Shown here piece after piece: positions 13,463 to 27,129 of a DNA stretch of 32,000 nucleotides. The position numbers and the translations under genes were made by a program. The notes beneath the pieces were generated by a model. The model saw only the letters and a list, made by a program, of their open reading frames with translations, made no database searches and had not been told where the DNA came from. The DNA comes from an uncultured archaeon (GTDB lineage Archaea; Asgardarchaeota; Thorarchaeia; Thorarchaeales; CAZPUN01): positions 1 through 32,000 of the forward strand of contig CAZPUN010000035.1 of NCBI GenBank assembly GCA_964589775.1, in the 5' to 3' direction. Every line of letters starts with the position of its first letter. The stretch's first letter is position 1.

Positions 13463-14608
13463 TTAGATACATCTGTGAATGACTTCTGGGCCTTGTTCTT
13501 CGAATTCCTTCTTTGAGACCCACATCTTCTGGAATGTCTTCAGAGAAGCGATAATTGAACCACCAATCCATACAGAGTACTGTCGTTCAGGTGGAGCAAT
13601 AATTCGAACTTCGACATTTTCAGGTACTAATTCGGAAATTTCCTTGTGAAGTCGCTCCTTAAGACCTGGGAACATTGTTGAACCGCCAGACAAGACAATG
13701 TTTGCATAGAGATCTCTTCGTAAGTCGACATCAGTTGCCTTAATCGCATCGACGATTTGTTCATCTAATGGAGCTGTATCAAGACCGATTGCACTTGGGT
13801 TGAAGAACAATTCGGGTGCAAGGAATCGCTCAGCACCAATTGTAATAACTTCACCGTCTGGTAACATGTATGGCTTGTCTACACCAGCTTTGTCTGCAAC
13901 TGTCTTTTCACGGTCTGGATCTAATGCGACATAACACAGTTTTTCCTTAATATCACGTACAATTTCTTTCTCAGCACCACTGACGAAGTTGTAACCTCTC
14001 TGACGGAGTAATCTTCGGAGATATTCGGTAATGTCACGACCTGCAAGATCAATTCTTCGGATTGCGTGTGAAATTGCGAATCCTTCGAAGATAGGGACAA
14101 TGTGAGTTACACCATCACCACTGTCTACAACAAGACCAGTAGTTCGTCCAGATGCGTATAGAGATAGAATTGCCTGAGTTGAGATATATACTGCGGGTAC
14201 ATTGAATTTCTCAAACATCATTGAAGCCATTCTTTCACGATTCTCACGTGGGTTAAATGAAGCTTCAGTTAATAGAACTGGACTTTCACTTGGATCCACT
14301 TTCAAGTCATTGTAGAATGTATATGACCAGATTTTTTCAATGGCTTCCCAATCTTCAATAACACCATGTTCAATTGGATAGATTAGTCTCAACACACCTC
14401 GAAGATTGCTTGCCTCTTCACCAATGTAGTAATCACGAGTATAGTGATCTACATCGGACATAATATGTTCATATCTTGGATATCCAATCAAAGTGGGCCA
14501 AACAGATCTGGGTTGGTCTTCACCAGCAAATCCGTTCTTAGATAAACCAGTTCCATTGTCTAGTACTATTGGCTTTGCGCCTAGATATTCATCCGGGATG
14601 TCTGCCAT
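13463..14608 (-). CDS. Actin, Asgard Lokiactin-type
   Basis: DNGTGLSKNGFAGEDQPRSVWP, YPIEHG, VLLTEA, LSLYASGRTTG, DSGDGVTH, LAGRDIT, EIVRDIKEKLCYVALD, LPDG, LSGGSTMFPG, APPERQYSVWIGGSI; SD GGAGG at 14618-14622. Confidence 0.97.
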   Translation of the reverse strand: MADIPDEYLGAKPIVLDNGTGLSKNGFAGEDQPRSVWPTLIGYPRYEHIMSDVDHYTRDYYIGEEASNLRGVLRLIYPIEHGVIEDWEAIEKIWSYTFYNDLKVDPSESPVLLTEASFNPRENRERMASMMFEKFNVPAVYISTQAILSLYASGRTTGLVVDSGDGVTHIVPIFEGFAISHAIRRIDLAGRDITEYLRRLLRQRGYNFVSGAEKEIVRDIKEKLCYVALDPDREKTVADKAGVDKPYMLPDGEVITIGAERFLAPELFFNPSAIGLDTAPLDEQIVDAIKATDVDLRRDLYANIVLSGGSTMFPGLKERLHKEISELVPENVEVRIIAPPERQYSVWIGGSIIASLKTFQKMWVSKKEFEEQGPEVIHRCI

Positions 14609-14644
14609 CTTTTTATTCCTCCATAATTAACAAGTTTACTGGAT

Positions 14645-14689
14645 CTCAATCATAAGATTGAGCAGAATTCCAATCTCAATATAATGAGA
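14645..14689. promoter_or_regulatory. Two related palindromes in the actin promoter/leader
   Basis: CTCAATC-ataa-GATTGAG (14645-14662) and TCTCA-atataa-TGAGA (14674-14689); ATCTCAAT repeated 30 nt apart; minus-strand TTAAATA at 14695-14701. Confidence 0.45.
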
Positions 14690-14730
14690 AGTTCTATTTA
14701 AGCGTTACCTACATTTTAGGTATTTTTTCT

Positions 14731-14768
14731 CATAAACTATATAAACAATATAGATTATATAGTTTATG
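14731..14768. promoter_or_regulatory. Perfect 14-bp inverted repeat over the TATA box and start codon of the wHTH gene
   Basis: CATAAACTATATAA-N10-TTATATAGTTTATG. Confidence 0.7.
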
Positions 14769-15440
14769 ATTATGATGACAATTATTAATGGAACCAAAAT
14801 AATAACTGAGGAAATTGGTGAAACACCTGCAAGAATGTATATACTAGAGGCGCTTGTTGAAGGTAACAAGAATGGTTCGGAATTAAGGAGGATATTACAG
14901 GAAAAATTGAATAAGACAAAGATAACAGATCCACAATTATATTATAATTTGAATAAATTAGAAAAACATGGAATAATAAAGAGTACGAAAATTTGGAGAG
15001 AGAAAAAATATTCATTAAATCCGATATATATACAACCTGTAAGAGACGTATTGAACATCACAAAACCAAAAATAATTTTCTTTAGCGTTTCAGACCCATC
15101 AGAAGTGCGAAATCGATTAAACAACATACTTAGAAAATACAGCATAAAACCACAGAAGATCTTTTTGATAGCAAAAAAGAGTACATTTAGAGGGGCAAGA
15201 CCAATAAGCAATGTATCACTTATTTTTTTCGATGAATCAACATATGATAAATCATTAAATTTTGCAAGACATGAGATTGAGGACTTAATACTTGCATATA
15301 TAAGCAATTACGAAATAATTTTTGACATCACATATTTTGGAATAGCGACCATAATAGCAATTACAGAATTATGCCTAAAGTATTCAATAAAGTGTTTGAG
15401 ATTCGAAACTGAATTAATCTGGATACAAAATATTAAATAA
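14766..15440 (+). CDS. Winged-helix regulator with C-terminal CARF-like (Csa3-like Rossmann) domain
   Basis: N-term PARMYILEAL..GSEL..LYYNLNKLEKHGII (wHTH); C-term KIIFFSV / KPQKIFLIA / EIIFDITYF pattern. Confidence 0.65.
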   Translation: MIMMTIINGTKIITEEIGETPARMYILEALVEGNKNGSELRRILQEKLNKTKITDPQLYYNLNKLEKHGIIKSTKIWREKKYSLNPIYIQPVRDVLNITKPKIIFFSVSDPSEVRNRLNNILRKYSIKPQKIFLIAKKSTFRGARPISNVSLIFFDESTYDKSLNFARHEIEDLILAYISNYEIIFDITYFGIATIIAITELCLKYSIKCLRFETELIWIQNIK

Positions 15441-15521
15441 AAAAGTATCGAAAACTAAATTAATGTGTAAACAGAAAGAATATGGTGCACGTCCAAACCT
15501 CATATATGGGGGAATAATTAA

Positions 15522-16499
15522 TTGAAAGTAGAATTAATAAATACACAAAAATTCGACAGTAAAATTACATCAATAGATATCATAAAATCAAAGGAAAATA
15601 AAAGTCATTGTATCATAATTGGGTTTGAAAATGGAACAATTGAGATATTTAAGTGGAATATAAAACAATTTGAACCAATTTATAAAAAGCAAACCCATGA
15701 CTTGGTTTTTTCAGTTAATGCTACGGACATTGATATGGACGATAACGAAGAAGCGATAATCACATACATTTCAGGTGATATTAAAGTATTCATGAAAGAT
15801 AAAGCAAATTTAATGGAAATCAGTTCAATTTCTCTTGGATGTACGCCAACCGCCATATGCTTAGCAAATGTTTCAAATGATAAAACAAATGAATTAATAG
15901 TTTCTACACAAGACGGCGCTCTTAGAGCCTATGGCTGGTTTTCAGGATATTTAGATAAATTAGCTCATAAAGTATTAGATAAGCCTATTGATATAATGAA
16001 ACCAATTAAATCTTACACACAGAGATATTCGCGCATTTTAACTAGCCAAGAAAATATAATTAAAGCATATGTTTATGCAGATGATAGACTACATGAGATA
16101 TATTCAATTAGTTTAGATGATGCTATAAAAGAAATGGAGATCGGCGATTTAGATCATGACCGAACAACAGAAGTAATTATATTAGATACAAAAAATAATT
16201 TGAAAATATATAAGCAAATTCAGAAAGGCTTGGATTTAGTGTCTACTCTAAAATTGGATAAAAATTTTGAACGCATGAATATAATTAATTATAAAGGCCA
16301 GGACTATCTTTTATTATCAAAAGAAGATAACGCATCGATTTGTAAAATAAATAATAACAAAATTGAGCCTATATTAAAATTTAAAATAAAAAACCATTAT
16401 GAGCGAACGTTATTTACAACAATGGATGTGGATGATAATACAAAAATTCTAATACATACGATAGACAACATTATGGAGATATTTAAAATAAAGGATTAA
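15522..16499 (+). CDS. Cytoplasmic beta-propeller with FG-GAP/VCBS-like repeats
   Basis: Repeats DIDMDDNEEAII, NVSNDKTNELIV, GDLDHDRTTEVII, each followed by a G/N-x-I/L-x-x-Y/F strand; no signal peptide or TM. Confidence 0.7.
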   Translation: MKVELINTQKFDSKITSIDIIKSKENKSHCIIIGFENGTIEIFKWNIKQFEPIYKKQTHDLVFSVNATDIDMDDNEEAIITYISGDIKVFMKDKANLMEISSISLGCTPTAICLANVSNDKTNELIVSTQDGALRAYGWFSGYLDKLAHKVLDKPIDIMKPIKSYTQRYSRILTSQENIIKAYVYADDRLHEIYSISLDDAIKEMEIGDLDHDRTTEVIILDTKNNLKIYKQIQKGLDLVSTLKLDKNFERMNIINYKGQDYLLLSKEDNASICKINNNKIEPILKFKIKNHYERTLFTTMDVDDNTKILIHTIDNIMEIFKIKD

Positions 16500-17368
16500 G
16501 AGGGAAATTCAGAATCCTCTTCTGAAATAGATCTAAATACACTATTTTCATTATGATTTATTACAGATTTAACCTCAGATAATACGAGTGGAGTATTATT
16601 TAAGAACAGCTCAAATTCCACATAAGGTTTAAGACCTGAAGTCTCCAATTTTTTACCCAAAACTTGCTCAACTTGGAATACACCAGCAGGGTTTTCCATT
16701 TCGATATGAATACAGACAGGACTGTTCTTACCTTCAACAATTTCGACTGTTTTTATAGCTAATGCGCTTATACTATGAATATCGATCTTACCCTTTGATG
16801 CGGGCAACCTACTACGTCCTTCAGTTAAGTCGCAGCCGTCCCCGACTTTGACTGCCCCGGCTTCAATTGTTAGACAGGGAATCTCGTCATCATGCGACAT
16901 AATTCCATGTAATATTAGACTGAAAATATCAGTGCGCTTTTGAAGATCATCAGGATACAAGTCATTGACAACTTTCTCTATGAAATCTTTTCCGAAAATT
17001 GCAGAATATGAGGGATGCCAAATTCTATGAACAATATGGCCAATATCATGCAAAAATGCAGAAGTGACAACAACAACGAGGGAATCATCTAAAGACCCAA
17101 TTCCTTCAGATACTACATTTGGCGAAATATGTTTAGATAGCGTTTTAAGAACCTTTATCGCATTTAAGGTTGCAATATGGGCATGTACAATACCATGATC
17201 ATTATAAGATAGACGATCTACTGCCATACGATTTCCAGATATGTAATAAGCATTTAATTTTTCATCAGATGATAACAGATTAAATGCGCGAATAGCCTTT
17301 GGAAAATCCTTAAGTTCATCTAGTATTTTTTTTCTATATTTTAATACGAATTTTGATGACACAATCAA
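16496..17368 (-). CDS. HD-domain phosphohydrolase (archaeal family)
   Basis: RLSYNDHGIVH, LHDIGH..HR..H, SHD, KVGDGCD..EGRSR, IHSISA. Confidence 0.88.
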   Translation of the reverse strand: MIVSSKFVLKYRKKILDELKDFPKAIRAFNLLSSDEKLNAYYISGNRMAVDRLSYNDHGIVHAHIATLNAIKVLKTLSKHISPNVVSEGIGSLDDSLVVVVTSAFLHDIGHIVHRIWHPSYSAIFGKDFIEKVVNDLYPDDLQKRTDIFSLILHGIMSHDDEIPCLTIEAGAVKVGDGCDLTEGRSRLPASKGKIDIHSISALAIKTVEIVEGKNSPVCIHIEMENPAGVFQVEQVLGKKLETSGLKPYVEFELFLNNTPLVLSEVKSVINHNENSVFRSISEEDSEFPS

Positions 17369-17458: not shown

Positions 17459-20400
17459 CTAATCACTAATTTCTTCCTTAAGTAGTAGTAGCAATGAATC
17501 AATCGCTGCGGAAGACTTGCGAATCTTCTTTTCATAATCTGCTTTCATCTTGTCATACACAGCACGAGTGATTGTACCGCGTTTCTTGTTTTTAATGAGT
17601 GTTTCAAGTCCAGCTTTAGCACCACTGATTTGTTGTTCATGAGTTTCAATATCTCTTGCAATATCCTTGTACTTCTGACCATATGATTCAAGTTCCTTAC
17701 GAACAACTGGTAGTTCCTTAGATATTTCTTTCAATCGAGTATTTATGTCAGATTTTCTTGCACGATATTCAGCACGAGTTATCTTTCTTCGTCTCAAGTT
17801 CTCATTCATCTTATCAAGCTCAAGGTTAAGCGCCATTTTATCGGCATATAATTCAATGAACTTCTGAATGAGTTCTGGAGGAGCACTAGTAGTTCGTGCA
17901 GTTGTTTCATGTGATTCTTCTGAAGTCGTTGGAATGATCTCGGTATGTCGCATTACAACATAGATTAATGCTACAAATCCGACAAGTAAGCTGAATAATA
18001 GTGGTCGAGCCCACACACCAGGGATAGTGACAACATATGTAATATATGGTGCATAATCGCCATAGCCTGTAGTATTAAAGTAATCGAAATAATATCCTTT
18101 TTCAAAAGGATAATAGTATATTCCTGAAACTTTTGGTGAATCAATGACAGATACATAATCAGGAAAGATATAGTTAATTCTGTGGAATCGGATAAGTGTA
18201 TTCATTAATTGTGGCACTTTGACATTAAGAGTGTAGCCGGTACCATTTGGCTTGGCGTAAACACTAAGAGGTGTTTTGAAGAATAGATGGAAAGTATAAT
18301 TCCAACCAGGTTTTAGACCATCTAATAGAAGGTCTCTATTGAAGTCTAAATCAAATGTTGCAGAAGCATTCTTGGGGAGACTGTCTTCGGGCTTTGAATT
18401 AGGTAGAATTCCGAGCTCATCATACACCTTAAAATCATACCAATATGCAGGGACAAGAATTGTATATCTGTTTAATGTTGCAGTGCCTACATTTCTTAGG
18501 GTTATGACATTATCATATACAACCCATCCCCATGGATCAACACGAATATTTGTGGTAATCTCAGCAATAACTTTTGTATGCGATGATGTGGTGTAAAATG
18601 CTGAAAATTCTACGAAACTAAGTGGATATATATTAAGACCTGCCATATTTCTAACGGCAATAGGTACATAATCGCCTTCAGGTGCAGTAACTTTACATGT
18701 TGCATTCTTAATGACGTATGGAATTGTGGGCCACTTATAGAAACTAAACTCATAGCGTGGATTTTGTGGATCCTCGACATAATATTGTACATCACTGTAC
18801 ACGGCAATAAATTTGAATTGGTATTTCTTTAGTGGATACAATGGTTCAGGAAACATAACTAAGTATCGCGAATAATTAGATGTGGGAGTTAATTTCTTTA
18901 CAACTATGTTTTCCATTGAGATTGTTGTAGCCCATACAGTTCTTAGGTATTTAGAATAATTCAAAGGAATAAAGACATAAAATGAATAAACTGGCTCTGA
19001 GCCATTATTTTCAATAACAAATAGATCGGATACTTGGAATAATTGATAAACTTCAATATGAATTTCACGAAATGCATCGATTGATAAGCCAGGTTCTGCT
19101 TCAAATGGATGTTCAATTGTAATGTTGAGCAATAATGGAGTTGTTGTTTCATTTGATGCATCTGTAGCTCGAATATAAATATGATGAACACCCAACTCAT
19201 ATTCACGCGGATCAAAATCAAAATGGAAGACATCATGTTCTGGGCCATAGAACATAGTAGTCCAATTTCCATCATCAATTTTGATTTCAGCTATCGAAAC
19301 ATAGTCATTATCTGTTGCATTTATTTTAATGGTTGTAAGTGTATTTATCATGGTGTTATTTGCCGGACTGATAATAGAGACTTCGGGTAATGTATTTACT
19401 AAGAATGACACATGATAGGGATTATCGAACGAACTATGAGCACTTGGGGCATCATTAAGATCATCCGATGGGGAATATGCAAATACAAATGTATAATTTA
19501 ACGTGTTATTTAGCAGATCGATTCCATTTGAATTATGACTCTTTAAGTCGATAACATATTCTAATACAGTGTATGCACCATTATCAGTACCATTAGCAGA
19601 GATAATTCGTGTCTGATTTTCGAATGGAACACGAGTATAATAGCCAACACCATATTGTTCAGAATAAACAATTTGACTTAATCGAGCTGGATTAATGCTA
19701 AATACAATATCTTGAATTTTAATTGATAAGCAATAGATAGTGAATATTAAAGGAAGCCCATAAAATTTAGACTCTGTAGATACATAACCTTTCTCAGGTG
19801 GAATAAATACATTACGTACTTCACCGACGCGCATGCCCAATAATCCTTCATAAAATCCTTCGATAACATTCGGATTCGAAAGATTAACAGTTAGTGGAGA
19901 ATAAGAATATTTGTCCAATCCGGCGGCCATTCCAATAGATTGAATTGAAGTATCAAATATAGTACCATTTGGAAATCGGCCTACATAATCAACGGTTATT
20001 TCATAAGGGGCTTTTGCGCGCAATACTGTACTATAAGTGTCATTTGGAGAATATCCAGTTATGAGGTCTAAACCCTCAAAGCCAGTATTACTTAGAGATG
20101 TAGTTCCGTTTGTCCAACCAAAGGTAATAGACCCTGAAGTCGGAGCACGCAATGCAAGATAAAGATATGTGCCATTTTGCTCAGCCCAGACTTTAATACC
20201 GGATACATTATCTGTAAATGACGCCTTATATTCATATGGATCTACAATTCCATCAGCATAACCATAATGTTTGTATACATATGGAATGCTCATGTTTATT
20301 GTCCCAAAAGAATCAGATGGTATGGGAGTTTTATTATTTATTGCACTATTGGGTAATGAGGCATTCATTTGTGCCCCAGAGTAACCCAAGGTATTTAGGA

Positions 20401-20464
20401 AGAGCGCTACGAATATAATTGTTATAATTAAACGCTGCTTTGAGTGGTTCAATTTCCTCGGCAT
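17459..20464 (-). CDS. Multidomain ribophorin I-like membrane protein (signal-DOMON[FKBP]-Ig-ribophorin I-TM-cytoplasmic helical tail)
   Basis: IRVDPWGWV..ITLRNVG, VYDELG, LKPGWNYTFHL and RPLL-TM resemble RPN1 motifs; FKBP VDYVG..NGTIFDTS..VIEGFYEGLLGMRVGE..IPPEKGY; likely start ATG 20464 (MPRK). Confidence 0.75.
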   Translation of the reverse strand: MPRKLNHSKQRLIITIIFVALFLNTLGYSGAQMNASLPNSAINNKTPIPSDSFGTINMSIPYVYKHYGYADGIVDPYEYKASFTDNVSGIKVWAEQNGTYLYLALRAPTSGSITFGWTNGTTSLSNTGFEGLDLITGYSPNDTYSTVLRAKAPYEITVDYVGRFPNGTIFDTSIQSIGMAAGLDKYSYSPLTVNLSNPNVIEGFYEGLLGMRVGEVRNVFIPPEKGYVSTESKFYGLPLIFTIYCLSIKIQDIVFSINPARLSQIVYSEQYGVGYYTRVPFENQTRIISANGTDNGAYTVLEYVIDLKSHNSNGIDLLNNTLNYTFVFAYSPSDDLNDAPSAHSSFDNPYHVSFLVNTLPEVSIISPANNTMINTLTTIKINATDNDYVSIAEIKIDDGNWTTMFYGPEHDVFHFDFDPREYELGVHHIYIRATDASNETTTPLLLNITIEHPFEAEPGLSIDAFREIHIEVYQLFQVSDLFVIENNGSEPVYSFYVFIPLNYSKYLRTVWATTISMENIVVKKLTPTSNYSRYLVMFPEPLYPLKKYQFKFIAVYSDVQYYVEDPQNPRYEFSFYKWPTIPYVIKNATCKVTAPEGDYVPIAVRNMAGLNIYPLSFVEFSAFYTTSSHTKVIAEITTNIRVDPWGWVVYDNVITLRNVGTATLNRYTILVPAYWYDFKVYDELGILPNSKPEDSLPKNASATFDLDFNRDLLLDGLKPGWNYTFHLFFKTPLSVYAKPNGTGYTLNVKVPQLMNTLIRFHRINYIFPDYVSVIDSPKVSGIYYYPFEKGYYFDYFNTTGYGDYAPYITYVVTIPGVWARPLLFSLLVGFVALIYVVMRHTEIIPTTSEESHETTARTTSAPPELIQKFIELYADKMALNLELDKMNENLRRRKITRAEYRARKSDINTRLKEISKELPVVRKELESYGQKYKDIARDIETHEQQISGAKAGLETLIKNKKRGTITRAVYDKMKADYEKKIRKSSAAIDSLLLLLKEEISD

Positions 20465-20688
20465 CCCGTGTATTTTTTTGTGATATATATGATAAATATG
20501 AATTTTAATAATCATACAAATTTGATTTTTAATAATCGAATCAAACTTAGAAGTTTTGAGGTGTTACGAAATTAAAAGGTTTTCGTTGCTAAATCTGATT
20601 CACACACATTTAAATTAATCTATGACAAACATCATGGAAAATATTTTTAGATGTTTCTTCACTTGCAGTAATGAGGAGTGCATGAAAG

Positions 20689-21666
20689 ATGATAATGATA
20701 TTACTTGCAGGCATATTTTCAGTGATAATTGCATTGGGACTTATTCCATTTACATTTGGAAAACTGAAAGAACGTAAAATGTATACCAAAGACATGCATA
20801 AACCGGGACAACCAGAAGTTCTAAAAGAAGGCGGCGTAGTGATCTTATTTGGCATAATTGTAGCGCTATTGCTAATAATAGGTATTAAGACATTTTCAGG
20901 AGAAATAATTAACAGTGCATTATTAGCATCTGTAATTTCTATTCTGATTGCGGGACAAATGGGGATTTTAGATGACATACTTGATTTTAGCCGATTAGTA
21001 AAGGTGTTCATACCATTTACAGCTGCCATACCATTAATGGCACTAAAAGCAGGAAATACAACAATGCAGCTCCCAATCATTGGGGTAATAGATCTTGGAA
21101 TAATATATCCATTGTTAGTTGTACCCTTAATTATAACATTTGTAATAGATTCAACAAACATGCTTGCAGGCATGAATGGTCTAGAATCAGGACTTGCAAT
21201 AATTAATGGCGTTGGAATCTTAATATTGTCAATAATAAAAGGGTTTAATGACGCTGCAATCGTATCGGCCACCTTAATTGGTGCTACACTTGTATTTTTC
21301 AAATATAACAAATATCCCGCAAAAATTTTACCGGGAGATGTTGGAAGACTGCCCCTTGGCGCAACTATGGCAACTGCAATTATTTTAGGAAATATGGAAA
21401 GATTTGCGATTTTTATGTTTTTATTATATTTCATTAACTTTATTCTCTTCATAGTACTTACAATTAAGGTAAAACGAACTGGAATGGAATGGCCAAAATT
21501 CGCAAAAGTAAACGATGATGGAACTTTGACTGCACCGGGTCCATATACAGTATACTGGATATTACCATACTTTAAGAAGGGGATCACCGAAAAACAAAAC
21601 GTATACGCAATCATGACATTACAAGCTATCATTGTATCTATTGGATTAATAATATCATGCATTTAA
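20689..21666 (+). CDS. Polyprenyl-phosphate GlcNAc-1-phosphate transferase (GT4/MraY-like; ALG7/AglH-type)
   Basis: DMHKPG..EGG, GILDD, STNMLAGMNGLESG, NKYPAKILPGDVG; about 10 hydrophobic segments. Confidence 0.9.
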   Translation: MIMILLAGIFSVIIALGLIPFTFGKLKERKMYTKDMHKPGQPEVLKEGGVVILFGIIVALLLIIGIKTFSGEIINSALLASVISILIAGQMGILDDILDFSRLVKVFIPFTAAIPLMALKAGNTTMQLPIIGVIDLGIIYPLLVVPLIITFVIDSTNMLAGMNGLESGLAIINGVGILILSIIKGFNDAAIVSATLIGATLVFFKYNKYPAKILPGDVGRLPLGATMATAIILGNMERFAIFMFLLYFINFILFIVLTIKVKRTGMEWPKFAKVNDDGTLTAPGPYTVYWILPYFKKGITEKQNVYAIMTLQAIIVSIGLIISCI

Positions 21667-22691
21667 AATTCATTTTCTATTTTTTCTTTAAGATATTTAG
21701 ATACAAAAGATAACCCCCAACGGCTCAATGCTTGTTGCTCTGCTCTTTTTCTGATTTTTTTAAATTCAAGCAATTGTGATTTCCAAGGTTCTTCTTTATA
21801 ACGCGGGTCCAATAAAAGTTCATCAATCTTTTTCAAATCAGCATCTGTTAAATTCATAGCTGGAAGTTGGTAATCCTCAATATCAGATGCATATACACCG
21901 ATCCATTTTGCATCAGGAGTTACTAAATCAGGAATATGTGCAGAATTGCGACTGCCATAAACAATTACGTTTGCGATATGCATCCCCCAAGGATCTGCAT
22001 CGGTAAATATGAAACATTTTAGTCCTAGTTCCTCATTTAATCGCTTGATAATCCGCCGAGCTGAACGAGGAGCTTGACCGCCAAGATGAATTAGTATTGC
22101 GTTCATACTCTTCCAAATACTCTCTTCAATTAATCTAGAGAACATACCACCGGATTCGATAGCTATGACAATTTGCGCATTTGTTTTAATAAATTTAGAA
22201 TTTGTAATAGAGGGCCCAATAGAAAACCCATCTGGATTAGATGAAAGATTTACAGATTTTCCTTCAAACCCATGAACTGTGTATTCAATAGTTAAATCAC
22301 CAAAAATAGCAGAACGCTCTTCAGGGAAAATACCAAAAGATTCACGAGGTACACCTAAATACGCCTCAAGATCAGTAACAATACGGTCTGATTCATCTTG
22401 ATCTTTAAAATTTACACCATACCCTTTACTCGAATAATATAAATCACGCAGAGAACTCGTTCTATTATTTTTTAATAATCGGTATACATAATATGCGGTC
22501 CACATAAATTGATGGAAATTCTTTGCATGCCGAATGTTTCTTGAATCTTTAGTTGATTTAAGATCCCCAACTTTGAATTTTCCTTCATCAGGTAAAAATA
22601 ATACATTCTTAGAGCTTCTATCAGGTAAAACTATTTTTGGGTATTGCCCATTGTTTATATCATTAAGTATTGAATTTGCAAGTTCCTTCAA
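21663..22691 (-). CDS. top6A: DNA topoisomerase VI subunit A (Spo11 homolog)
   Basis: SLRDLYY (catalytic Tyr), FKDQDESD, IESGGMF, FTDADPWG, EQQAL; start may lie slightly upstream. Confidence 0.95.
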   Translation of the reverse strand: MKELANSILNDINNGQYPKIVLPDRSSKNVLFLPDEGKFKVGDLKSTKDSRNIRHAKNFHQFMWTAYYVYRLLKNNRTSSLRDLYYSSKGYGVNFKDQDESDRIVTDLEAYLGVPRESFGIFPEERSAIFGDLTIEYTVHGFEGKSVNLSSNPDGFSIGPSITNSKFIKTNAQIVIAIESGGMFSRLIEESIWKSMNAILIHLGGQAPRSARRIIKRLNEELGLKCFIFTDADPWGMHIANVIVYGSRNSAHIPDLVTPDAKWIGVYASDIEDYQLPAMNLTDADLKKIDELLLDPRYKEEPWKSQLLEFKKIRKRAEQQALSRWGLSFVSKYLKEKIENEF

Positions 22692-22704
22692 TTTTAATAA
22701 AATA

Positions 22705-24204
22705 TTAATGATTATCCGCCTCCAAACGAGTTAATAATTTATTGAGCTCATGTTCTGTGGGTTCGTGGTCATAAAGAATATAGTAAGCATATTTCAAGGA
22801 TTTTCTCAAGTGCTGCCGTAATATCTTCTGTTGTTTCAAAGAATGCTGTACAGTTGATTCACCAACTATCATTTTTTCCAATTTTGAAAGACATTTAGAA
22901 GATATTTTGATTCCAGAATCATAGATCTCAGGAATAGTAGCTATTGCAGTTTTCTCAATATCTCTAAAAGGTACATGTGTAGAACATATATGAAATAAAA
23001 ATATTGGATATTTTTCTTTAAAAATGCGTTTATTAAATTTTAATCCTTTTATAATATTATAAAATACATCATCAGATTGAGAATAGATAAGTGGAACTCT
23101 ATTTGCAAATCTAATTAATTTAGGTTCATTATTAGAAGAAAATTTTTCACTGATAAATGCTATACATTCAATAATAAATGGATGCCCATGATGCGAACTA
23201 GGTTGAGAAATTTCATAAACAAACTGTTGTGATGAATACCTATTTTTAATAGATTCGGCAAGAAGTTTTTTTCCTAAAGGACTAAGACATTTTGCATCTG
23301 GCTTTGGAAAGTCGAATTTGGAAAGCTCTTTAAAGATAGAGTAAAGAGTGTTTTGTGAAAGATCATGAACCTTTATATTAGGGGATATATTTACAAATTT
23401 GAGAAATTTTTTTGCAGTAGAAACACCCACGCGCTGGAAAGTAGATGTGAAAAATTTGAGAATTGTCGCATCATTATCTTCTTGTGCATATCGCATAAAT
23501 GATTCAAAATCAATTCCATGAGGATGCGGCTTGCATTCTGGCGGACAATAAGGCATAAGTTTAGTAACACGTTCATATTTTAGAATTAATTTGTCATTCT
23601 CAATAAATTTTAGAGAAAGGTAGGGGGCAATTAGTGCTGTTAAATTGAGATATTCGAGAATTTTTTGCCTAGCACGAACATAATCGCCTTTCGCATAAAC
23701 TCTTACAGATGTACCAATCCAATTCTCTGTATTTTTGACCTTTTTCATTTCTTCAATAATCGGCTCATTATTTTTAATATCGATCTTAATTTTGTAATAG
23801 TATCGAAATATGCCATCAACAGACGTTTCTATTTCAGCAGGCATATTTGTAGAAATTTGTGAGTATAAGATAGCCATTGTGACACCCATACCTAAAGCGC
23901 CACGAGACTGACGATAACCGAATTTACTACCATAAAAAACTTTTCCAAACACATAAGGTACATTTTCAACAGGAATTCCACTACCATTATCAATAACAGA
24001 AATTACAATAAAATCAGTATTTTTAGAATCAATCGTTAACAAAATATTGGGTAATCGCCCAATAGATTCGCAAGAGTCTAAAGAATTATCAATAAGTTCT
24101 TTTACAATAGTGAATAAAGACCTAGACGGATTACTATAACCAGCCATTTGTCTATTTTTGTAAAAAAACTCTGAAGGACTCATTGATTTATAGTTGGATT
24201 CCAT
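22705..24204 (-). CDS. top6B: DNA topoisomerase VI subunit B (divergent)
   Basis: SPSEFFYKNRQMAG, ELIDNSLD, DNGSGI, GSKF..QSRG, PHPHG, H2TH FQRVG, RFANRVPL. Confidence 0.93.
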   Translation of the reverse strand: MESNYKSMSPSEFFYKNRQMAGYSNPSRSLFTIVKELIDNSLDSCESIGRLPNILLTIDSKNTDFIVISVIDNGSGIPVENVPYVFGKVFYGSKFGYRQSRGALGMGVTMAILYSQISTNMPAEIETSVDGIFRYYYKIKIDIKNNEPIIEEMKKVKNTENWIGTSVRVYAKGDYVRARQKILEYLNLTALIAPYLSLKFIENDKLILKYERVTKLMPYCPPECKPHPHGIDFESFMRYAQEDNDATILKFFTSTFQRVGVSTAKKFLKFVNISPNIKVHDLSQNTLYSIFKELSKFDFPKPDAKCLSPLGKKLLAESIKNRYSSQQFVYEISQPSSHHGHPFIIECIAFISEKFSSNNEPKLIRFANRVPLIYSQSDDVFYNIIKGLKFNKRIFKEKYPIFLFHICSTHVPFRDIEKTAIATIPEIYDSGIKISSKCLSKLEKMIVGESTVQHSLKQQKILRQHLRKSLKYAYYILYDHEPTEHELNKLLTRLEADNH

Positions 24205-24253
24205 AAAATCCACCACATAAAAATTAAAAAGATTTAAAATAAAAAAATGGGTA

Positions 24254-24829
24254 TTATTTAGGTTCGGGAGGTCGTTCCCAAATTTCTAAATCTTCAATTT
24301 TCATCTGACGCCGTTGATCTTCCAGATAACGATATACTGTTTTATGTGGAGCACCTTGAATAAGCATCTCGATTGCATGTTTTGCAATACGGAGCTCACG
24401 ATAGGTTCCAATAATTGCGGTTGTATATCCATAAACTGATACAAAAGTTCCGGTAGTTTCTTCGATTATTCGTTTTGTCTTTCCGCGCTCGCCAATTATA
24501 CGTCCTCTAATTCTGTGGATTCGAGCTTTTGAATTTCCGAGAATATCACGAAGAGAAATTATTTCAAGATAATAATCATCATCCAGTAGTTTAAATGCGC
24601 GCTCAGGACTGAAACCGCGACCTATCGCCTTTATAATGTCTCGAGCTTTCCAAACTTTTATTGGATCTTCATTGTTTGGTTTTGGATGGATAATAACTAG
24701 ACCAGTTCTACTATCAACTCTAATGATTGTTTCACTATATGATTCAATTTGTTTTTTTACGGTGCCATCTTTACCTAAAATAACACCAATTCTGTCTTCA
24801 GGTATCCTTACCTGCATTTCAGCTTGCAT
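24254..24829 (-). CDS. KH-domain rRNA processing protein (Pno1/Dim2 family)
   Basis: RIGVILGKDG, AIGRGFSPERA, RIRGRIIGERGKT, HKTVY. Confidence 0.93.
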   Translation of the reverse strand: MQAEMQVRIPEDRIGVILGKDGTVKKQIESYSETIIRVDSRTGLVIIHPKPNNEDPIKVWKARDIIKAIGRGFSPERAFKLLDDDYYLEIISLRDILGNSKARIHRIRGRIIGERGKTKRIIEETTGTFVSVYGYTTAIIGTYRELRIAKHAIEMLIQGAPHKTVYRYLEDQRRQMKIEDLEIWERPPEPK

Positions 24830-24842
24830 AATAAATCCCATC

Positions 24843-25619
24843 TTAATCGCTTTTTCCAATCACATAATCGTATACTTCTTCATATGAAGGAATTCCAATA
24901 CCTAATTTATCGAAAAATCGCAATATATTTTTTATATCGCGTGCAAGGTAGCGCTCGGAATATGGATGACGGATAGAGACAGCTTGTGAAACATCAATGA
25001 TTACTGGCTCATTATTTCTCATCAAGATATTATATTCACTAAGGTCTCCATGAACAAGTCTTGCTTTTGTATATGCTAGTCTAATTTGATCAATGATTTC
25101 AGACATCAGTGATTCTGGATCATTAATCTCAGAGTCCTTTAATTGACGTGCAGGCGACCCATCAACATGAATATATTCCATTACAAGAACATTTTTCTCC
25201 ACAGCAATAGGTTTTGGAACTCTTACACCAGCAGAATAAAACTCTTTGAGGTTACGATACTCTTTACTAGCCCACAATGGAATTAATACTCGAGGTGTTC
25301 GCTTTGACGCTTTAAATCTAGGATCACCCGCAATATAATCCCACATCCAATCAGGTTCCGCAGTAGTCATTCTATAAATTTTAACAACAACCGGTGAGCC
25401 ATCAGCCTGTCTTGCTAAGTAAACACCAGATTCTTTACCAGAGCTAATAACACCAACCATTTCATCAAACACATTATGATTGAGTAATTTATACAAAACT
25501 TTTAAGGTATAAGAATCTAAGACTGCTTCAATTACCTTAAATTGAGATTTGTCTTTACGACGCTTGAGATTGTCTTCAAATTTTAAATCAGCAAACTCGT
25601 CAAAAATATCGTCAGACAA
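24843..25619 (-). CDS. rio1: RIO1 kinase/ATPase
   Basis: ISSGKESGVY, KIYR, GDPRF, WASKEYRNL, HGDLSEYNIL, IDVSQ; TTG start with GGTGA SD. Confidence 0.95.
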   Translation of the reverse strand: MSDDIFDEFADLKFEDNLKRRKDKSQFKVIEAVLDSYTLKVLYKLLNHNVFDEMVGVISSGKESGVYLARQADGSPVVVKIYRMTTAEPDWMWDYIAGDPRFKASKRTPRVLIPLWASKEYRNLKEFYSAGVRVPKPIAVEKNVLVMEYIHVDGSPARQLKDSEINDPESLMSEIIDQIRLAYTKARLVHGDLSEYNILMRNNEPVIIDVSQAVSIRHPYSERYLARDIKNILRFFDKLGIGIPSYEEVYDYVIGKSD

Positions 25620-25634
25620 TTAAACATCACCAAA

Positions 25635-25955
25635 TTATAGGTCAGATAAATATCCTTTTCTCTTCAACCAATTAATATCGGTTTTTAAATATCGCCAGAC
25701 AACATCGCCCTTATCAGTGCTTTGAAAGTCCCAAGGCACTATGATGACAATGTCACCAACTCTAAGCCATACACGCTTTTTCATTCTACCAGGTATACGT
25801 CCAACTCTTATATGACCATCAGCACATTTTACTTTTACACGGTCATGACCCAACATTTGTATAACAACACCTAATATTTCACCTTCTTCAGGGTTCGGAA
25901 CCCTAACACGACCAGTCGTTTGTGATGCCGCGTCATTTTGTTTTTTCTTAGTCAA
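25635..25955 (-). CDS. eif1a: Translation initiation factor 1A
   Basis: MLGHDR, CADG..R.GRIPGRMKKRVWLRVGD, PWDFQ; TTG start. Confidence 0.97.
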   Translation of the reverse strand: MTKKKQNDAASQTTGRVRVPNPEEGEILGVVIQMLGHDRVKVKCADGHIRVGRIPGRMKKRVWLRVGDIVIIVPWDFQSTDKGDVVWRYLKTDINWLKRKGYLSDL

Positions 25956-26018
25956 ATTGAGATATAGCCTCCAAAATATTTTAGGAAATAATATGAAAAG
26001 GATTGTGAATTATATAAA

Positions 26019-27104
26019 TTATAATTCCCGTTCTTCATCTTTTATAAAGAAAAGCCTGCCTTTTAAGTTTACGCTATGTACAGATTCACCTGGAGAAAGA
26101 ATTAATGGAACTTGTTTGCGATCAATATCAATGATTTCATAATTTCCGTTATCCATTAATTGGATACTGGTAGGGGTCACCGAAAGAACCATTAATGTTC
26201 GCGTTTCAGAGCCATCCTTGAGAAAAACAATTTTTTGAAACTTGTTACTATCAATTGATACAGAAAACGTATTATGCTCGACAAGATTTAGACAAACTAA
26301 TCTTTTTCGTTCATTGCGTAAAACCATGGATGGAATTCGGTCAACTTCGATAAAATCACCCTTTCTGAAGCGAGGAAGCCGTACAACAACAGTTCGTAAA
26401 TATCTTCTTTCACCACTTTTAGGGTCGACTCCAACTAACTTGAAGGATTCTTTTATCGTCCCTAAGAACTGATCTCTTATTTCAACAGCAATTGCTTTAC
26501 AAAGATGCTCAGAGCCAACATCAAGAGTTAACCCGCCAAATCGCTCGTGAGTGATTTCAGAAATATATGCTTTTGAATCATGACCATAAGCATTATTTAA
26601 CATACTATATATTATAGAAGTGATCTCTCGTTCTTCACTCTCATCTAATTTACGTTCATCTGCACGAATTTGTAAAATAGATTCATGATGCCCGCCATGT
26701 CTAAGAGAACAACTACGACATAAAGAGAATTCGATTTTTATAGGCACCACATGTTTTTCAGGATAAGGGGGTATTAATCGATGTGTGGTCCCATAAATAA
26801 CAACTTCTGCCGTAGCATGAGTGTTATCGTGCTCCAAAATTTTTACGGTAATTGTATAATCCTTATTTTTGATATACTTGTCTCTTATTATTTTTGAAAC
26901 TGCCATTTCTAAGTGTTCAACATAATTAGTTGTCGTAGGAACAATCCACTTACCTCTATGCCAATAAGAATAACAATCCCTACAGATTTTTAATGTGATA
27001 TTAGGAATTGGATTAGACAAGGGGTGATCGTGTTTGTAACATTCAATACATTGCCCATCAATTAATGGGCCTTCACCCCCACAAACATAGCATACATTAG
27101 GCAT
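26019..27104 (-). CDS. nmd3: Nmd3 large-subunit biogenesis factor
   Basis: CYVCG..CIEC..CRDC..W..CRSC zinc ribbons, ILQIR, KLVG.D..G..Y, OB-like tail QLMD..YE. Confidence 0.92.
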   Translation of the reverse strand: MPNVCYVCGGEGPLIDGQCIECYKHDHPLSNPIPNITLKICRDCYSYWHRGKWIVPTTTNYVEHLEMAVSKIIRDKYIKNKDYTITVKILEHDNTHATAEVVIYGTTHRLIPPYPEKHVVPIKIEFSLCRSCSLRHGGHHESILQIRADERKLDESEEREITSIIYSMLNNAYGHDSKAYISEITHERFGGLTLDVGSEHLCKAIAVEIRDQFLGTIKESFKLVGVDPKSGERRYLRTVVVRLPRFRKGDFIEVDRIPSMVLRNERKRLVCLNLVEHNTFSVSIDSNKFQKIVFLKDGSETRTLMVLSVTPTSIQLMDNGNYEIIDIDRKQVPLILSPGESVHSVNLKGRLFFIKDEEREL

Positions 27105-27129
27105 ATCAAAACACCCCATAATGGATCCT

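Follow-up and report, generated by a model that had tools for sequence, protein, structure and literature searches.

Ribophorin I (RPN1 in human, Ost1 in yeast) is a eukaryotic signature protein that links Asgard archaea to the translocon of the endoplasmic reticulum (ER), and its job is poorly defined even in eukaryotes. Asgard Ost1 is itself well known (PMC10307638; PMC11417166). The cytosolic domain of the MK-D1 OST1 (8WHN) folds into a four-helix bundle of the same topology as its counterpart in human RPN1; it pulls down ribosomes, and ribosome binding has been shown for both the MK-D1 and the human domains (PMC11417166). Human FKBP11 is a membrane FKBP with a ribosome-binding C-helix, which lies beside the oligosaccharyltransferase complex OST-A at the translocon (PMC12804085). 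Here we describe a gene at positions 17459-20464 on the minus strand of a 32,000-nucleotide stretch of thorarchaeal DNA (the window hereafter; contig CAZPUN010000035.1, assembly GCA_964589775.1), which encodes a thorarchaeal Ost1/ribophorin I with an additional N-terminal head composed of a DOMON-fold sandwich, an FKBP domain nested within it and an immunoglobulin (Ig)-like domain. We found an ordinary Asgard Ost1 in the C-terminal 550 residues, and our searches strongly support the N-terminal 420 residues as an add-on specific to one archaeal order.

A single uninterrupted frame of 1018 amino acids with no internal stops was observed at 17459-20515 on the minus strand. Residues are numbered here from the upstream ATG at 20515, and the start at 20464 corresponds to M18. 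A true start at M18, giving a predicted product of 1001 amino acids, fits because the N-termini of homologues align there, and an identical 1001-amino-acid protein is present in the protein database. The order of domains, comprising an N-terminal signal or anchor, the head, a two-lobed body, a single transmembrane (TM) helix and a cytosolic tail, strongly supports a type I membrane protein. This layout had been proposed in an initial annotation made from the DNA sequence, and its domain boundaries were found to be correct to within about 10 residues.

The ribophorin I-like region that had been placed at about residues 478-832 was recovered by profile-profile alignment, profile search and fold alike, at residues 478-832 (18020-19084). 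An exhaustive phmmer search with residues 470-860 returned 57 proteins, mostly of 550-625 amino acids, and 25 of the 45 relatives that were aligned matched the Pfam Ribophorin_I family (best E 7e-26), while one relative (P0062) carried a precomputed PF04597 match. A profile of 40 short Asgard Ost1 sequences matched the whole length of human RPN1 (E 4.4e-41), as well as yeast Ost1 (E 3.7e-22) and 8WHN (E 2e-50). This profile included one long form truncated at a contig end (P0004), and it was rebuilt without that sequence for the hhalign comparison; one early family alignment also held an unrelated fn3-repeat protein (P0012). Against the rebuilt short-form profile, the C-terminal halves of the long forms aligned over 532 columns with a probability of 100% (E 7.4e-91). 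The profile of the long-form C-terminal halves alone (Neff 2.7) matched only 8WHN and not RPN1, so that the evidence for family membership comes from the short-form profile and the fold. The AlphaFold2 model of residues 470-860 (pLDDT 89.8, pTM 0.82) contained two beta-sandwich lobes followed by a TM helix at model residues 362-390. Foldseek ranks 1-8 for this model were all RPN1 or Ost1 (8b6l_O, E 7e-23, TMq 0.75; 6ezn_A, E 1.8e-19), and the next matches were unrelated (E 1e-7, TM-score ~0.23). The initial annotation had also likened the motifs IRVDPWG, VYDELG and LKPGWNYTF to eukaryotic ones, and the family profile indeed aligned them to the columns of human IEVSHWG, YRDEIG and FPLFGGWK.

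The remaining parts of the ordinary Ost1 were also observed. The single TM helix (residues 833-857; 17945-18019) coincides with a Kyte-Doolittle peak of up to 2.16 at 831-843 and a hydrophobic stretch reaching 857, and the residues of its R-P motif, R837 and P838, are nearly invariant in the family. The cytosolic helical tail (residues 873-1018; 17462-17899) shares homology with the four-helix bundle through which MK-D1 OST1 binds ribosomes; residues 873-1009 matched 8whn_A over 137 of 159 residues (E 6.9e-9), and the family profile matched the 8WHN tail domain with E 1e-48. These positions agree with an earlier placement of an RPLL-TM segment at about 835-855 followed by a charged helical tail. 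Coiled-coil matches on the tail (SMC, IFT57 and others) were rejected as low-complexity noise.

A family profile search found no second full Ost1 in the 96.75%-complete genome, and a single STT3 gene was found on another contig (C13). This STT3/AglB gene lies at C13:2325-3554, with an AglB frame of 922 amino acids. About 5 kb away, a 184-amino-acid frame (L020; C13:8527-8844, minus strand) gave a weak Ost3/6-like match of 21 bits, below the cut-off, and a scan of the genome with PF04756 (Ost3/6) gave sub-threshold matches only. Separately, a 334-amino-acid protein on contig C21 (L004:1201-2205, minus strand) was observed with a signal peptide, a TM helix and a cytosolic MarR-like winged helix, and its single beta-sandwich aligned with lobe 1 of ribophorin I in the Asgard profile (E 1.9e-11). 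This protein may regulate transcription from the membrane, using a sensor domain that resembles Ost1.

Hydropathy peaks were confined to residues 28-48 and 831-857, plus a minor one in the FKBP core. The first of these (20372-20434), where the 19-residue Kyte-Doolittle window exceeds 1.7 at 28-30, is a predicted signal peptide or signal anchor, close to the span of about 29-48 suggested earlier, and homologues are hydrophobic at the same N-terminal place. The initial annotation had counted more than 20 N-x-S/T sequons, all before the TM helix. We counted 26 in the 786-residue ectodomain, where shuffles of matched composition had 8.3 +/- 2.7 (none of 2000 reached 26), one further sequon ahead of the anchor and none in the 163-residue basic tail. 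Homologues have 14-24 sequons each, again with none in the tail, and the invariant sequons include N114, N183-T185 and N399. This distribution fits an N-out, C-in topology, and the protein itself is probably heavily N-glycosylated.

Within the head, the FKBP domain was recognized by sequence. Pfam FKBP_C (PF00254) matched residues 168-250 with E 6.9e-13 and 49.2 bits, well above the curated cut-off of 21.1, and the whole domain is a complete short archaeal-type FKBP at residues 163-270 (19706-20029), much as the earlier estimate of about 165-267 within a DOMON-like region of about 85-365 had it. The closest solved structure is that of MtFKBP17 (1ix5, E 2.5e-12), with which it has a long bulge segment in common, and it aligned end to end with the free 108-amino-acid FKBP of the same genome (102 residues, 37% identity, E 3e-23). 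In FKBP12 numbering the pocket comprises Y26, F36, D37, V55, I56, W59, Y82 and F99. This protein and a close relative (P0003) keep Y26, F36, D37, V55, I56, Y82 and F99, and the W59 position is occupied by F, as in archaeal FKBPs including MtFKBP17. All 14 aligned sequences have Y26 and Y82. In this alignment the lineage of the source genome is the one with the most canonical predicted FKBP pocket in the order. Two other FKBPs were found in the genome, both cytosolic, namely the 108-amino-acid short form with the archaeal bulge insert and without an insert-in-flap (IF) domain (L022; C23:121060-121356), and a 242-amino-acid long form with IF and C-terminal domains (L023; C17:6644-6907). Neither these two nor the one cyclophilin has a signal or TM segment, no parvulin was found in the genome, and the Ost1-borne FKBP was the only exported peptidyl-prolyl isomerase (PPIase) found there.

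The sandwich that surrounds the FKBP was identified by structure. A model of residues 60-475 was built from 14 homologues (pLDDT 77.5), and Foldseek on the three-domain head returned FKBP and Ig matches only. Exhaustive VIA-align searching placed DOMON-superfamily structures at the top for model residues 16-314 (protein residues 75-373), with ethylbenzene dehydrogenase gamma (2ivf_C, Z 14.9, 167 residues aligned) followed by NxrC (7b04_C, Z 14.5), the DOMON domain of dopamine beta-hydroxylase (4zel_B, Z 12.6), the cytochrome domains of pyranose and cellobiose dehydrogenases (Z 11.4-11.7) and CBM9 (1i82_A, Z 11.3). The DOMON-like fold that had been suggested from sequence is therefore borne out on the predicted model by structural matches of Z 11-15. 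FKBP structures (SlyD, FKBP13; Z 10-11) covered model residues 104-211 and Ig modules covered 314-412. The N-terminal half of the sandwich (residues 75-162; 20030-20293) and its C-terminal half (residues 271-373; 19397-19705) are spanned together by the structural matches, and because sandwich strands flank the FKBP on both sides, the FKBP is a domain insertion in a DOMON loop. To our knowledge there is no earlier report of an FKBP insertion in a loop of any DOMON domain. No DOMON, CBM9 or EB_dh Pfam family matched this protein at E <= 1, and NCBIfam likewise gave no DOMON match, a result still compatible with remote homology. Invariant residues of the sandwich are Y84, D88, D92, E95, Y96, D102, E112, N114, W134 and D150 in the first half and D311, E319 and H360 in the second.

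The Ig-like domain expected at about 374-468 was found at residues 374-471 (19103-19396), where Pfam Big_7 (PF17957) matched residues 377-446 (E 1.1e-6, 29.6 bits compared with a cut-off of 24.1) and VIA-align gave Z 11-13 to Ig- and fn3-like modules, including 9kvu_A (Z 11.2). A shape search of the ESM Atlas returned only Big_7 proteins (TM-score <= 0.36), and a search for short proteins bearing the head returned plain FKBPs only, covering about 24% of the query.

The source genome (2.16 Mb) is the sole representative of its family, and its protein is 31-33% identical to homologues of the sister family. The full-length head (E < 1e-100, in frames of about 985-1010 amino acids) was present in 83 of 86 genomes of that neighboring family of the same order. 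In this head-profile search, which covered 400 genomes of the phylum (Asgard), those outside the order gave FKBP-only or Ig-only fragments and no full head. Twelve further database clusters of 927-1010 amino acids, from metagenome-assembled genomes (MAGs) of Candidatus Thorarchaeota or Promethearchaeota, have the same architecture with 33-37% identity over the head; they are named by NCBI as 'FKBP-type peptidyl-prolyl cis-trans isomerase' or 'hypothetical protein', and for one of them precomputed matches to both FKBP_C and Ribophorin_I exist. A relative with 86-88% identity lies on a 320-kb contig of another assembly, and the junction residues are conserved among homologues. The fusion, for which an assembly chimera had been raised as a possible explanation, is thus real, under selection and conserved across the order in independent assemblies, with many invariant residues. 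Since both a divergent lone family and its sister family carry it, the fusion most likely arose at the base of the order, as judged from these alignments. The authors of the initial annotation knew of no description of this architecture, and we likewise found no mention of an FKBP- or DOMON-bearing Ost1 in the literature searched; the protein is common, however, as the standard Ost1 of Thorarchaeota. We also observed free-standing paralogues of the head in genomes G336 (L018:1830-3590, plus strand) and G317 (L019:1821-3608, plus strand). These proteins of 586 and 595 amino acids consist of a signal, a DOMON with nested FKBP, an Ig domain and a second Ig-like region, after which a linker rich in Ser and Thr leads to a TM anchor at the C-terminus; they lack the ribophorin part.

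Upstream of the gene, a divergent intergenic region (20465-20688) is common to the Ost1 gene and to a GT4 gene on the plus strand (20689-21666; Pfam Glycos_transf_4, E 4e-29), which resembles N-acetylglucosamine-1-phosphate transferases of the Alg7/AglH type. Among solved structures human DPAGT1/Alg7 matches it best (E 1.5e-14), with MraY behind. All 12 related loci examined, from three genera, retain the head-to-head Ost1/GT4 pair with topoisomerase VI A next in line, and the GT4 orthologues at those loci are 45-50% identical. This conserved putative Alg7/AglH-like neighbor ties the locus to N-glycosylation. Opposite the GT4 gene, a 350-amino-acid open reading frame (20610-21662, minus strand) had no family match and is probably a shadow frame.

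We interpret the protein as an Ost1 whose FKBP head would act as a translocon-tethered prolyl isomerase and/or holdase, a reading to which we assign a probability of roughly 60%. By homology to OST-A and MK-D1, the two lobes would sit beside AglB/STT3 and SecYEG, the tail would dock a translating ribosome, and the Ig domain may serve as a spacer holding the head above the channel exit. There, on the outer side of the membrane, where no ATP-driven chaperones operate, the FKBP would assist emerging unfolded chains by isomerizing prolines, by holding the chains, or both, and the DOMON sandwich would bind a ligand, a sugar or Ca2+ being likelier than heme. The foldase role is favored because this is the only exported PPIase found in the genome, because the pocket is intact in this lineage and because human FKBP11 is found beside OST-A.

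Several observations weigh against this reading. The direct score of the protein with Ribophorin_I (PF04597) was 13 bits compared with a cut-off of 25; Pfam and NCBIfam scans of the protein itself gave no Ribophorin_I match above threshold, and a scan of the whole genome with the Ribophorin_I model gave this 13-bit match inside the present frame as its only one, so that membership rests on profiles and fold. Placement beside AglB and Sec and docking of the ribosome are both taken from homology alone. The head model is of moderate confidence, being derived from only 14 sequences. At least two related genomes encode the head as a separate protein with a TM anchor, which indicates that it does not depend on Ost1 for its function. 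The nested FKBP lacks the archaeal IF chaperone domain, which weakens a holdase role. Among the other 12 aligned members, the F36 position is L, V, M or I (one keeps F) and D37 is Q or E (with one exception), while W59 is Y and the bulge segment is absent; given this drift of the pocket across most of the order, catalysis may not be the conserved function. Finally, the pocket of FKBP11 is buried by CCDC134, and the authors of that study argue against a role as a nascent-chain isomerase (PMC12804085).

The same observations lend themselves to a possible but rather unlikely alternative, an Ost1 with a non-catalytic FKBP, in which the head would be a protein-protein or envelope-binding platform that recruits a partner or tethers the translocon to the S-layer or glycocalyx. 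Replacement of F36, D37, W59 and F99 in most members of the order would be expected of such an adaptor, as would the absence of an IF chaperone insert and the invariance of G227-M228-R229, G231-E232, P239 and Y244, which belong to the surface or core. FKBP11, with its buried pocket and with catalysis unlikely according to its authors, is itself an adaptor for CCDC134 (PMC12804085). However, the lineage studied here keeps the canonical archaeal FKBP pocket, Y26 and Y82 are retained in 14 of 14 sequences, and the genome yielded no further exported PPIase.

A broader version of the foldase reading would see in this protein a one-chain co-translocational station at the thorarchaeal cell membrane, where clients are glycosylated, folded and checked by a foldase and a ligand- or glycan-binding domain built into the OST subunit that docks the ribosome, and an independent archaeal counterpart of, or Rosetta-stone pointer to, the FKBP11/OST-A and malectin/RPN1 associations of the eukaryotic ER. 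We regard it as tentative and, on balance, unlikely; if true, the coupling of folding catalysis to N-glycosylation would predate or parallel the ER. A second alternative, which follows the initial annotation, is glycan-sensing quality control, in which the DOMON would be a CBM9-like lectin that reads N-glycans on fresh clients and is coupled to the FKBP, as in the pairing of malectin with RPN1. CBM9 (Z 11.3) and a putative carbohydrate-binding protein (Z 10.9) are among the structural matches, the conserved acidic and aromatic DOMON residues (Y84, Y96, W134, W363 and several D/E) are compatible with sugar or Ca2+ sites, and both the neighboring gene and the protein's own sequon load link it to glycosylation. 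The best structural matches are nonetheless heme-type DOMON domains and not lectins, there is no CBM9 or DOMON sequence family match, and nothing observed here indicates an archaeal cycle of the deglucosylation/reglucosylation type, and we consider this alternative decidedly doubtful.

Those same heme-type matches raise a third alternative, which we consider very improbable, namely binding of heme b by the DOMON. The head would then serve in redox chemistry outside the membrane, for example in oxidative folding or electron transfer, and the FKBP would be a passenger. The four best DOMON-type matches include the heme binders EbdC and NxrC and the cytochromes of cellobiose dehydrogenase (CDH) and pyranose dehydrogenase (PDH) (Z 11.4-14.9). 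Across the 14 sequences, however, the sandwich has no invariant Met, Lys or Cys and a single invariant His, H360, where cytochrome-type members have a Met/His or Met/Lys pair as heme ligands; this makes cytochrome-type heme ligation less likely. The cysteine content of the ectodomain is 0.3%, and an ectodomain almost without cysteine does not of itself suggest oxidative folding of neighboring clients; nor was a redox partner seen in the neighborhood. An artefact, either an assembly chimera or a gene-call read-through joining an FKBP gene to an Ost1 gene, might be suspected from a single MAG of 64 contigs in which Pfam alone sees FKBP and Big_7 only, but it can be dismissed given the stop-free frame, the 83 of 86 sister-family genomes, the 12 database clusters, the relative on the 320-kb contig and the conserved junctions.

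The window as a whole is AT-rich (~34% G+C), and its origin from an Asgard archaeon shows in genes for eukaryote-like actin, both subunits of topoisomerase VI (A and B), RIO1, NMD3 and a KH protein of the Krr1/Pno1 type. At 13463-17368 the eukaryote-like actin (Pfam Actin, E 3e-132) adjoins a PadR/helix-turn-helix protein, an HD-domain protein and a beta-propeller that lacks a signal and has repeats resembling those of BBS2/BBS7. The genes for topoisomerase VI B and A occupy 21663-24216. A ribosome-biogenesis cluster on the minus strand (24254-27119) consists of a Krr1/Pno1-type double-KH protein, a RIO1 kinase and NMD3.

We compared the head and its parts with known systems. Archaeal short FKBPs and their relatives, such as MtFKBP17 (1IX5), MjFKBP26 (3PRB) and SlyD, resemble the nested domain, with the bulge insert of 1ix5 and F at the W59 position in common, but they are free and cytosolic, whereas the domain described here has no IF, is exported and is inserted in another domain. 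Members of the DOMON superfamily, namely EbdC (2IVF_C), NxrC (7B04_C), the dopamine beta-hydroxylase DOMON (4ZEL), the CDH cytochrome (1D7C) and CBM9 (1I82), are similar to the predicted sandwich over 140-186 residues (Z 11-15); it differs from them in having no sequence family match and no conserved heme ligand pair and in carrying an inserted FKBP of 108 residues. PpiD and PrsA are proteins with parvulin-type PPIase domains anchored at the outer face of the membrane near the bacterial Sec exit. Their likeness to the present protein is one of function only, as they have a parvulin and not an FKBP, are part of no glycosylation complex and show no homology. Human FKBP11 (9N9J, 9YGY; PMC12804085) would be a further functional parallel, being an exoplasmic FKBP that a membrane anchor with a ribosome-binding cytosolic element keeps next to an oligosaccharyltransferase at a ribosome-bound translocon. 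A whole-length profile of the long forms searched against the PDB was swamped by FKBPs, among them the chain of FKBP11 (E 1.7e-4). It differs in being a separate, dynamically recruited protein with its pocket buried by CCDC134, whereas here an archaeal-type FKBP is covalently part of Ost1, and the likeness is best seen as an analogy in which common descent is not indicated.

The closest systems by descent are Ost1 proteins themselves. Human RPN1 (6S7O, 8B6L) and yeast Ost1 (6EZN, 6C26) have the same luminal fold (TMq 0.68-0.75), and RPN1 has full-length profile homology that includes the cytosolic bundle, with the conserved motifs in the same columns; the differences are the identity of only about 15%, the extra head and the location in the cell membrane as opposed to the ER. 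The fusion is confined to Thorarchaeota. As this lineage is not the one closest to eukaryotes, convergent logic is a likelier explanation than ancestry. The order-wide fusion can be read as a gene-fusion hint to folding help, and possibly to the reading of a ligand or glycan, beside the oligosaccharyltransferase outside the membrane, and the head (~420 amino acids) and tail (~160 amino acids) are compact, expressible targets in the archaeal translocon. The OST1 of MK-D1 ('Ca. Prometheoarchaeum syntrophicum', 607 amino acids) has the same signal peptide, two-lobed body, single TM helix with R-P motif and bundle of about 160 residues, whereas the some 420 additional N-terminal residues of the protein described here are found in no Ost1 outside its order, the other matches being of 550-625 amino acids. 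To this comparison the present genome adds a divergent, small-genome lineage that retains the canonical archaeal FKBP pocket.

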